A stretch of DNA of 38,802 nucleotides from Betaproteobacteria bacterium (GTDB lineage: Bacteria > Pseudomonadota > Gammaproteobacteria > Burkholderiales > SG8-39): assembly GCA_031409355.1 (NCBI GenBank), contig JANNXB010000407.1:1-38802 (forward strand), written 5' to 3'. The translations under genes and the position numbers were made by a program. Within the stretch, counting starts at the first letter, position 1. Every line of letters begins with the position of its first letter. Below are positions 30,895 through 31,566 of the stretch, one piece after another. The notes below the pieces were generated by a model, which saw only the letters and a program-made list of their open reading frames with translations, was not told the DNA's origin and made no database searches.

Positions 30895-31566
30895 ATGTCG
30901 TTCTTCATCACGCTTGTCGAAAACTCGGACGCAAGCCGGCGCGCCATCGAAACCTTGCCCAGGGTGCATTCGATGATGCACAAGGGCCTCCCGCTTGCGG
31001 AGTACCGCGCGTTCCTGCGCGACCTCTATCACATCGTCTGGCACTTCTGCCCGATCATGGCCGCCGCCGCGGCGCGCTGCGATGATCGCCTGCGGGACAT
31101 CCGCTTCGAGCTATACGAGAGGATCGGGGAGGAGAAAGGGCACGAGGGGTGGGTACTCGAGGACATCGGTGCCGTGGGAGGCGATGTTCCGGGAGCGCAT
31201 GCTGCGGCGCCGAGCGCGCCCGTGCAGGCGATGATCGGCTTCAACTACTATGCCGCCGAACGGGTGCACCCCTGCTCGGTGCTGGGCATGCTCTACGTGC
31301 TGGAGGTCGTCGCCTCAGTGTACGGCGGCAAGGCGGCCGACTCTATCGCGCGCGCGATCGGGCGGGAAACCACGGCGGGGGGCTTTCGCTTCCTGTCTTC
31401 TCACGCGACCATGGATGCGGACCACATGGTGAAACTCAACGTGCTGCTCAAGACGATCAACGATCCGGTAGCGCAGGCCGCGATCGTCGATTCCACGCGC
31501 GTGAACTTTCACCAGTTCGGCCAGCTCTTTTCCGACGGCGGCTTCGTTTCGCACCTGGTGCGCTGA
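30895..31566 (+). CDS. Hypothetical all-helical protein, probable heme-oxygenase-like / iron-containing redox enzyme fold (CADD/PqqC/TenA/UndA-like)
   Basis: 223 aa with helix-rich composition. ExxH in IGEEKGHEGW, Glu in YVLEVVAS, DxxH in HATMDADHMV, spaced as in four-helix-bundle di-iron/heme-oxygenase-like proteins. Assigned by motif recognition only. Confidence 0.55.
   Translation: MSFFITLVENSDASRRAIETLPRVHSMMHKGLPLAEYRAFLRDLYHIVWHFCPIMAAAAARCDDRLRDIRFELYERIGEEKGHEGWVLEDIGAVGGDVPGAHAAAPSAPVQAMIGFNYYAAERVHPCSVLGMLYVLEVVASVYGGKAADSIARAIGRETTAGGFRFLSSHATMDADHMVKLNVLLKTINDPVAQAAIVDSTRVNFHQFGQLFSDGGFVSHLVR

Follow-up and report, generated by a model that had tools for sequence, protein, structure and literature searches.

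A heme-oxygenase-like dimetal oxidase linked to RpfF-like crotonases in an rpf-type locus of uncultured Betaproteobacteria, a candidate signal-tailoring enzyme

We describe a gene for a predicted heme-oxygenase-like dimetal oxidase (HDO) that lies between the rpfC-like and rpfF-like genes of a diffusible signal factor (DSF)-type locus in an uncultured betaproteobacterium. The locus is carried by JANNXB010000407.1 (assembly GCA_031409355.1), a complete 38,802-bp contig of an NCBI metagenome-assembled genome (MAG) with 66% G+C, the whole of which was analysed and is called the window below. The HDO appears to be a cytosolic, dedicated partner of the adjacent RpfF-type crotonase in a cell-cell signalling locus of the RpfC/RpfG type. 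The reading favoured here, which we consider reasonably probable, is that of an O2-dependent tailoring enzyme making a modified DSF-family signal from the RpfF product. What is new is the tight linkage, and sometimes the fusion, of an HDO to an RpfF-like crotonase; the HDO fold and rpf-type signalling are themselves of known kinds.

Results

The HDO gene and its predicted metal site

The HDO gene (30895-31566, + strand) starts with ATG and encodes 223 aa. Its G+C content at third codon positions (GC3) is 0.84, its ratio of nonsynonymous to synonymous substitution rates (dN/dS) against five orthologues is 0.07-0.22, indicating purifying selection, and its homologues make up 1872 clusters (90% identity) at E <= 1e-3; because of these three properties the open reading frame (ORF) is taken as a real gene and not a chance one. 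The borders given in the initial annotation, with a 48-nt gap after the kinase gene (stop at 30846) and a 10-nt gap to the crotonase gene (31577), were found in the sequence as claimed. The three motifs that had been read there as marks of a heme-oxygenase-like metal site were located at residues 79-86 (EEKGHEGW), 134-141 (YVLEVVAS) and 173-179 (MDADHMV).

The assignment to that fold held. The protein belongs to Pfam PF14518 (Haem_oxygenas_2, 'iron-containing redox enzyme'; 65.4 bits against a cut-off of 28.9, E 7e-18), and its AlphaFold2 model, built on 39 sequences, is all-helical (pLDDT 89, pTM 0.85) and forms the seven-helix heme-oxygenase-like bundle. Foldseek comparison of the model with the PDB gave TM scores of 0.83 to 3DDE (root-mean-square deviation 2.2 A), 0.82 to CADD, 0.75-0.76 to UndA and its orthologue PSPTO1738, and 0.69-0.71 to BesC and HrmI, followed by TenA, PqqC and heme oxygenases. 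A family profile and conservation set of 41 homologues (23-80% identity to the window HDO) gave E values of 4e-36 for 3DDE, 4e-15 for CADD, 4e-10 for MboA and 2.5e-9 for UndA.

In the profile alignment the UndA ligands E101, H104, E159, H194, D198 and H201 fall on E80, H83, E137, H170, D174 and H177 of the window HDO, and the CADD ligands E81, H88, E142, H174, D178 and H181 on the same six columns. All six positions are at least 90% conserved across the 41 homologues, and their codons were checked in the DNA (E80, 31132-34; H83, 31141-43; E137, 31303-05; H170, 31402-04; D174, 31414-16; H177, 31423-25). HDOs are defined by 3His/3carboxylate primary ligands on three core helices (2026 review, PMC13108848), and the window protein, judged by its sequence, falls under this definition. 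Fold and ligand set can be assigned with high confidence; the metal is most likely di-iron.

Besides the ligands, Y37, L41, E79, D90, P126, G131 and L136 are near-invariant in the family. Y37, E79, position 84 and D90 have no obvious counterpart in UndA or CADD, and Y37, E79, E84 and D90 may mark the substrate site or a second sphere; their codons span 31003-31164 of the window, and most members have E, D or Q at position 84. The helix ahead of the ExxH helix runs unbroken in the model (residues 34-61) and holds no family-conserved Glu or Asp, position 43 varying between D, E and Q. By conservation, SznF being too distant for sequence alignment, the SznF-type seventh ligand seems to be absent. 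The SznF/RohS-type N-oxygenases (3His/4carboxylate; PMC7848743) are marked by one more Glu ligand, carried by a beta-turn insertion of auxiliary helix alpha-2. McBride et al. correlate the lack of this carboxylate and insertion with enzymes that, like UndA and BesC, coordinate their substrate directly and abstract hydrogen from a C-H bond (PMC7848743).

Profile scores and identities place the window protein in the HDO superfamily and not as an orthologue of UndA, CADD, SznF or PqqC. Publicly it is annotated as 'PQQ biosynthesis protein C' (IMG) or 'iron-containing redox enzyme family protein'. A PqqC/TenA identity, as the IMG name implies, was rejected: NCBIfam returned no match at E <= 0.1, the Pfam family TENA_THI-4/PQQC scored 15.4 bits against a cut-off of 22, and the full metal-ligand set is kept, whereas PqqC is a metal-free enzyme. 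No pqq genes were found in the window.

Linkage to the crotonase within the clade

The convergent neighbour of the HDO gene encodes an RpfF-like crotonase, a DSF-synthase homologue of 312 aa (31577-32515, - strand; ATG at 32515, ribosome-binding site GGGGAGA; ECH_1 1.2e-18 in Pfam). It matches the RpfF structures PDB 7ZQ7 (E 1e-56) and 3M6M (E 4e-53), and both catalytic glutamates are kept, GGGFE and GLPE aligning with Glu141 and Glu161 of the Xanthomonas campestris pv. campestris (Xcc) enzyme in the 3M6M alignment. The protein passes NCBIfam PRK08788 (347 bits, cut-off 177) and fails the RpfF equivalog NF053515 (220 bits, cut-off 550). On the other side of the HDO gene lies that of an RpfC-like hybrid sensor kinase (28315-30846, + strand; N-terminal membrane region, HisKA, HATPase_c, REC and Hpt in Pfam). 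Both neighbour identities proposed in the initial annotation, RpfC-like kinase and convergent RpfF-like synthase, are thus upheld by Pfam, NCBIfam and PDB matches. The kinase gene is preceded by one for an RpfG-like response regulator with REC and HD-GYP domains, the latter a cyclic di-GMP phosphodiesterase domain (27218-28318, + strand; Pfam Response_reg 4.5e-24, HD_5 1.5e-34), which is the first gene of the operon.

The GTG start of the rpfC-like gene overlaps the rpfG stop as GTGA (28315-28318), which suggests translational coupling of regulator and kinase. Since a scan for promoter-like and terminator-like sites called none on the + strand of the 48-nt spacer between rpfC and the HDO gene (30847-30894), the latter is probably co-transcribed as the third gene of the rpfG-rpfC operon.

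When one genome per GTDB species was scanned, 98 species-level genomes proved to encode a relative of the HDO, and the best 80 of the 98 were analysed. All 80 loci come from uncultured Burkholderiales/Betaproteobacteria-type MAGs. The order rpfG-rpfC-HDO> <rpfF was found in 77 of them by tblastn with the window proteins, the contigs of the other three ending before rpfF, and rpfG orthologues stand upstream of rpfC in related loci. Across the 80 loci the HDO is 63-94% identical and thus at least as well conserved as RpfF and RpfC, and genes for deoxynucleoside kinase, folK and pcnB are common flanking synteny. Co-occurrence with rpfF, which the initial annotation had proposed as a check, is near-universal in this clade and is joined by natural crotonase::HDO fusions outside it.

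Fusions and contexts outside the clade

The genome-collection scan returned the HDO's own clade only; 13 contexts from outside were obtained from plasmid records and individual protein look-ups, and 936 HDO family members at E <= 1e-3 came from exhaustive HMMER searching over 1.84 billion cluster representatives. Single-chain crotonase::HDO fusions, which are among the nearest matches outside the clade, account for at least 17 protein clusters, one for example in a Rhodothalassiaceae MAG. These proteins are 600-690 aa long, with the crotonase N-terminal, the HDO C-terminal and a low-complexity linker between. The crotonase halves of the two fusions tested in detail fall in NCBIfam PRK08788 (331-333 bits); in fusion P0126 the crotonase half is 44% identical to the RpfF-like protein of the window and the HDO half 47% identical to its HDO.

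All four retrieved fusion contexts adjoin a REC-PAS-kinase and a hybrid kinase of RpfC-like domain architecture, and the two of these hybrid kinases that were compared with the window RpfC are full-length homologues of it (BLAST; 33-34% identity over ~850 aa, membrane region included). A gene for an MMPL exporter, a lipid exporter of RND type, directly follows the fusion in two of the four contexts (L083:3447-15352; L094:1922-11056). The first of these also has, within 5 kb, a PhyH dioxygenase gene and a LuxI/LuxR pair, so that two signalling systems stand side by side. Upstream of one fusion gene (L095:944-5417) lie genes for a ketoacyl synthase, a FabA/ApeI-like dehydratase, an acyl carrier protein, a lipid A acyltransferase-like protein, an SDR and FolB, which may be a dedicated acyl-chain supply.

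Standalone HDO homologues of three other lineages (44-53% identity) likewise adjoin RpfF-like crotonases, which are 42-55% identical to that of the window. The layouts differ: in L086 the HDO and crotonase genes run in one direction (HDO>crotonase>) with a 20-nt gap and a convergent kinase gene, and in L087 and L088 the order is kinase/Hpt-HDO> <crotonase. On plasmid RPME01 of Methylibium petroleiphilum PM1 (L081) the HDO gene (42% identity) overlaps the start of the crotonase gene by 4 nt, and no kinase gene is found near the pair. This plasmid is conjugative, and its HDO cassette lies amid small phage- or plasmid-like genes; after the pair comes the gene of a 280-aa 'ferritin' (L081:10708-11550), which contains a pair of ExxH motifs, weakly matches the models for soluble acyl-ACP desaturase and AurF, and is probably another di-iron oxidase.

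Three alphaproteobacterial RpfF-like/RpfC-like pairs have no HDO gene within 7 kb. The HDO is an optional module that travels with the synthase, and the existence of pairs lacking it fits a tailoring step and not a core part of sensing. Because the association of HDO and crotonase is kept through gene rearrangement and fusion, it goes far beyond chance adjacency, and functional coupling of the two proteins is very probable.

Accessory genes and more distant family members

In 37 of the 80 loci the spacers beside the HDO gene hold an extra gene, next to the HDO gene in nearly all cases and mostly for a lipid oxidase. A cytochrome P450 gene occurs in nine loci, in eight of them directly upstream of the HDO gene; these include the nearest relative of the window, L001 (P450 at L001:4596-5927), whose HDO is 94% identical to that of the window. 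Fatty-acid hydroxylase genes are found in 14 loci, membrane fatty-acid desaturase genes in four, alpha/beta hydrolase genes in four (three of these also with a fatty-acid hydroxylase) and genes for Coq4-family proteins in ten, once with an EamA transporter. Further examples of accessory genes are at L006:6662-7405, L042:4067-5953 and L028:1760-2896. The window itself carries none of them. The pattern is that expected of a biosynthetic hot spot decorating a lipid. A Coq4-family protein is here encoded downstream of an rpfF homologue.

HDO family members at ~30% identity either follow an AMP-binding acyl-activating enzyme in one chain, joined to its C terminus, or share a conserved operon with such an enzyme. 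On this distant branch the operon reads thermostable hemolysin (T_hemolysin), AMP-binding protein, HDO (separate or fused to the ligase), SDR and a small hypothetical protein; it was found on plasmids or chromids of Vibrio parahaemolyticus (plasmid; L092:3925-8076), Variovorax (L082:5888-10273) and Novosphingobium (L093:4085-7405), and in Pseudoalteromonas records an AMP-binding protein is also annotated at the HDO match. It looks like an uncharacterised lipid-modifying cassette, and a literature search for a cluster of thermostable hemolysin, AMP-binding protein and HDO found nothing relevant. Both partner types, the thioesterase-active crotonase and the acyl-adenylating ligase, handle free carboxylic acids, which fits an HDO substrate bound to the metal via its carboxylate.

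Other features of the window

The 6-bp GC hairpin gcgggc-ttta-gcccgc, reported in the initial annotation between the convergent HDO and rpfF genes, is present at 31570-31585, with the rpfF stop codon (31577-31579) in its loop. On the - strand the stem grows to 9 bp (dG -25.4 kcal/mol, z = -2.7), against z = -1.0 on the + strand, and the hairpin may form at the 3' end of the rpfF mRNA. A bidirectional or canonical intrinsic terminator is not supported for it: there is no U tract, folding is significant, and modestly so, on the - strand only, and the terminator scan does not call it.

Among the scanned ORFs of the window no AMP-binding (rpfB-like) domain was detected, in keeping with the earlier remark that rpfB is missing from the cluster. 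The remaining ORFs are housekeeping genes: queA, tgt, secDF, purB, mnmA, nadE, a deoxynucleoside kinase gene, folK, pcnB, and genes for a HAD hydrolase and an AI-2E transporter. From the ORF list, folK (HPPK; 33649-34257) lies ~2 kb from the HDO gene. The AI-2E family transporter gene (36726-37796, - strand) is ~5 kb from the rpf-like cluster, and a gene of the same family stands at the edge of L088; this proximity is probably conserved synteny and not a functional link.

A multi-PAS histidine kinase gene (24826-27135, + strand) stops 83 nt upstream of rpfG. It looks like a member of the signalling cluster, but its conservation there is not supported: related loci, as far as their flanks reach, have no orthologue (>= 50% identity) ahead of rpfG. 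Farther away, a 673-aa ORF (13995-16016, + strand) has GC3 0.92 and no Pfam match at E <= 1e-5, and the gene after it (16380-17456, + strand) encodes a response-regulator receiver fused to an adenylate/guanylate cyclase domain.

Discussion

Comparison with known systems

The layout of the locus recalls the Xanthomonas rpf cluster, in which rpfB-rpfF is convergent with rpfG-rpfH-rpfC: the three core proteins and the convergent rpfG-(x)-rpfC> <rpfF order are shared, the domain architectures of RpfC and RpfG are identical, and Glu141 and Glu161 are retained in the RpfF homologue. Unlike the Xanthomonas cluster, the locus has an HDO gene between rpfC and rpfF and neither rpfB nor rpfH, and its crotonase comes from the sister family PRK08788 and stays below the RpfF equivalog cut-off. 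RpfB, a FadD-type fatty acyl-CoA ligase, resembles the HDO in being encoded beside rpfF and in acting on the free fatty-acid products of RpfF, and its AMP-binding class is the fusion partner of distant HDO family members; its fold is unrelated, however, and its reaction is an ATP-dependent thioesterification as against an O2-dependent oxidation.

UndA decarboxylates C10-C14 fatty acids oxidatively to 1-alkenes, abstracting the sp3 C3-H. The analogy with this Pseudomonas enzyme (PDB 4WWJ, 6P5Q) that had been drawn in the initial annotation stands in part. Fold (TM 0.75), size (similarly small), superfamily and the ExxH ... E ... HxxxDxxH ligands, column by column, are shared, as would be the substrate class, a medium-chain fatty acid. 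The identity is only 16-17%, however, and the profile E value of 2.5e-9 marks a superfamily-level relationship short of orthology; the presumed substrate of the HDO, a cis-2-enoic acid, has no sp3 C3-H (the beta-hydrogen used by UndA); and UndA works alone, without crotonase or signalling genes, whereas the window HDO and its closer standalone homologues have a crotonase partner wherever the contig reaches that far.

The nearest solved structure, 3DDE (Sden_3740 of Shewanella denitrificans, a 'DUF with heme-oxygenase-like fold'), is a true family member that shares the EExGHE and SHxxxDxxH motifs, though at ~20% identity. MboA, the mangotoxin HDO acetylenase (PDB 9YPI), has the same ligand pattern (profile E 4e-10) and shows that HDOs can perform successive desaturations; it is a distant relative, with an amino-acid-derived substrate and a need for the redox partner MboB.

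A tailoring step on the RpfF product

As we picture it, the RpfF-like enzyme would dehydrate a 3-hydroxyacyl thioester and free a cis-2-enoic (or 3-hydroxy) medium-chain fatty acid, whose carboxylate would then bind the open coordination site of the 3His/3carboxylate cluster and trigger O2 activation. The acid would be oxidised near its head group, by hydroxylation, desaturation or epoxidation, with decarboxylation less probable. The oxidised product would be the signal, sensed by the co-encoded RpfC-like kinase and transduced by the RpfG-like HD-GYP protein, and in many sister lineages the inserted lipid oxidases (P450, fatty-acid hydroxylase, fatty-acid desaturase, Coq4-like) would diversify it. 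The analysis itself demonstrates the fold, the ligand set, purifying selection and the linkage, by gene order and by fusion, to the crotonase and to RpfC-like kinases; the identity of the metal, the substrate, the order of steps, the outcome of the reaction and the role of the product as a signal are all parts that we infer.

Should the HDO be a tailoring enzyme, an oxidation that retains the carboxylate would be the likelier outcome, with oxidative decarboxylation a lesser prospect, roughly speaking, and some other reaction a smaller one still. The preferred candidates would be allylic or gamma hydroxylation, further desaturation or epoxidation, the carboxylate being kept. Three considerations favour them: UndA-type decarboxylation uses an sp3 beta-hydrogen, which a 2-enoic acid lacks; homologues of the receptor sense carboxylic acids; and the enzymes with which the sister subfamily is coupled require a carboxylate.

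Several points weigh against tailoring. The 80 loci are, by their shared flanking synteny, a single vertically related clade and so represent few independent events. In the window the HDO gene is probably transcribed with the sensor genes and not with that of the synthase. Because the gene of the turnover enzyme RpfB likewise adjoins rpfF in Xanthomonas, adjacency alone cannot separate synthesis from turnover. With characterised HDOs the window protein shares 14-20% identity, which is similarity at superfamily level only, and its nearest solved structure, 3DDE, is without assigned function. The chemistry of HDOs is very diverse, moreover, and the characterised ones act on fatty-acid and amino-acid substrates (PMC13108848); a non-lipid substrate is possible.

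Alternative explanations

Turnover or quorum quenching, by which the HDO would replace RpfB and oxidatively inactivate the RpfF-derived signal, or mop up fatty acids freed by a promiscuous RpfF thioesterase, seems unlikely. It would suit the lack of an AMP-binding gene in the window, the probable co-transcription with the sensor genes and the position of rpfB in Xanthomonas, as well as the fusion or adjacency of distant HDO family members to ligases of the RpfB class; yet rpfB or fadD may simply sit elsewhere in an incomplete MAG, and a synthase fused to an enzyme that destroys its product, as in the 17 protein clusters, would be a futile cycle. The translational coupling of HDO and crotonase on the sensorless Methylibium plasmid points to joint production, and the variable extra oxidases resemble biosynthetic decoration. 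Tailoring is favoured over signal destruction because of the fusions and of these accessory lipid oxidases.

In the window, L087 and L088 the HDO gene directly follows kinase or Hpt genes, a position that could also speak for a regulatory or protective accessory, either an O2, iron or redox sensor (as with hemerythrin-type di-iron sensors) that modulates the RpfC-like kinase or RpfF-like synthase, or an oxidative-stress protectant like DtpC. HDO cofactors are labile and O2-reactive (PMC13108848), and Acinetobacter DtpC shows a non-biosynthetic role for an HDO domain (PMC13232832). We regard such a role as quite improbable, given that the Methylibium pair has no kinase, that in the RpfF-linked fusions the partner is always the crotonase and never a kinase, and that the full catalytic-type ligand set is conserved; DtpC itself differs in the spacing of E143 and H153, which are 10 residues apart as against E80xxH83, and in having catalase as its partner (PMC13232832). 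That the gene is an unrelated housekeeping enzyme there by chance, such as a p-aminobenzoate synthase of the CADD/PabS type or PqqC, is very hard to credit, even with CADD as the best-scoring characterised relative (profile E 4e-15, TM 0.82), folK ~2 kb away and the IMG name pointing to PqqC. The folK-pcnB pair is widespread and conserved in its own right, folK is absent from the HDO loci L081, L083, L085 and L086, the PqqC models do not match and PqqC lacks a metal, and the crotonase fusions rule out chance adjacency. The self-sacrificing p-aminobenzoate synthases CADD/CtPabS and NePabS share the six ligand positions; the sacrificial Tyr27 of CADD and its neighbour Lys152 (PMC9522330), however, align to Val24 and Ala147 of the HDO, with no Tyr in the former column among the family members shown, and the HDO partners a crotonase and a kinase, not folate genes. 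A CADD-type synthase, suggested by the nearby folK, was rejected on these grounds.

Significance

DSF-family signals, which control virulence, biofilm formation and antibiotic tolerance, are in the prevailing view the work of RpfF alone, their known diversity being one of chain length and branching. Literature searches for rpfF or DSF together with a heme-oxygenase-like, di-iron or PqqC-like gene found no paper, and one on DSF systems in Rubrivivax, Methylibium and Leptothrix found nothing describing an HDO-rpf arrangement, which agrees with the statement in the initial annotation that no rpf locus with such a gene had been described. No crotonase-linked HDO or rpf locus with an HDO was found in the HDO review (PMC13108848), which counts only about a dozen HDOs with assigned function, and the HDO network of the SznF paper mentions no crotonase or ligase fusion.

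If tailoring is correct, an O2-dependent di-iron enzyme would add a biosynthetic layer to DSF signalling, and probably new signal structures, and would tie signal production to O2 and iron. These proteins would form a large new HDO subfamily with a built-in substrate clue; its size is ~1,900 or ~2,500 clusters (90% identity) in two possibly overlapping searches, the second of which includes sister clades. The hypothesis is testable with two genes, or with one natural fusion gene.

More tentatively, and as a proposal that may well not hold in full, RpfF-like crotonase and HDO could together be a two-enzyme, sometimes one-polypeptide, synthase for chemically new diffusible lipid signals, used by abundant uncultured soil and freshwater Burkholderiales and some Alphaproteobacteria, with lineage 'dialects' arising from swapped extra oxidases (P450, fatty-acid hydroxylase, fatty-acid desaturase, Coq4-like) and co-evolving RpfC-like receptors. 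The new signals may be gamma-hydroxy, epoxy or dienoic acids, or decarboxylated unsaturated hydrocarbons. The tailoring reading, if true, would give a rare handle on the chemical communication of uncultured soil Betaproteobacteria, an abundant group that probably makes an oxidised signal molecule not yet described.

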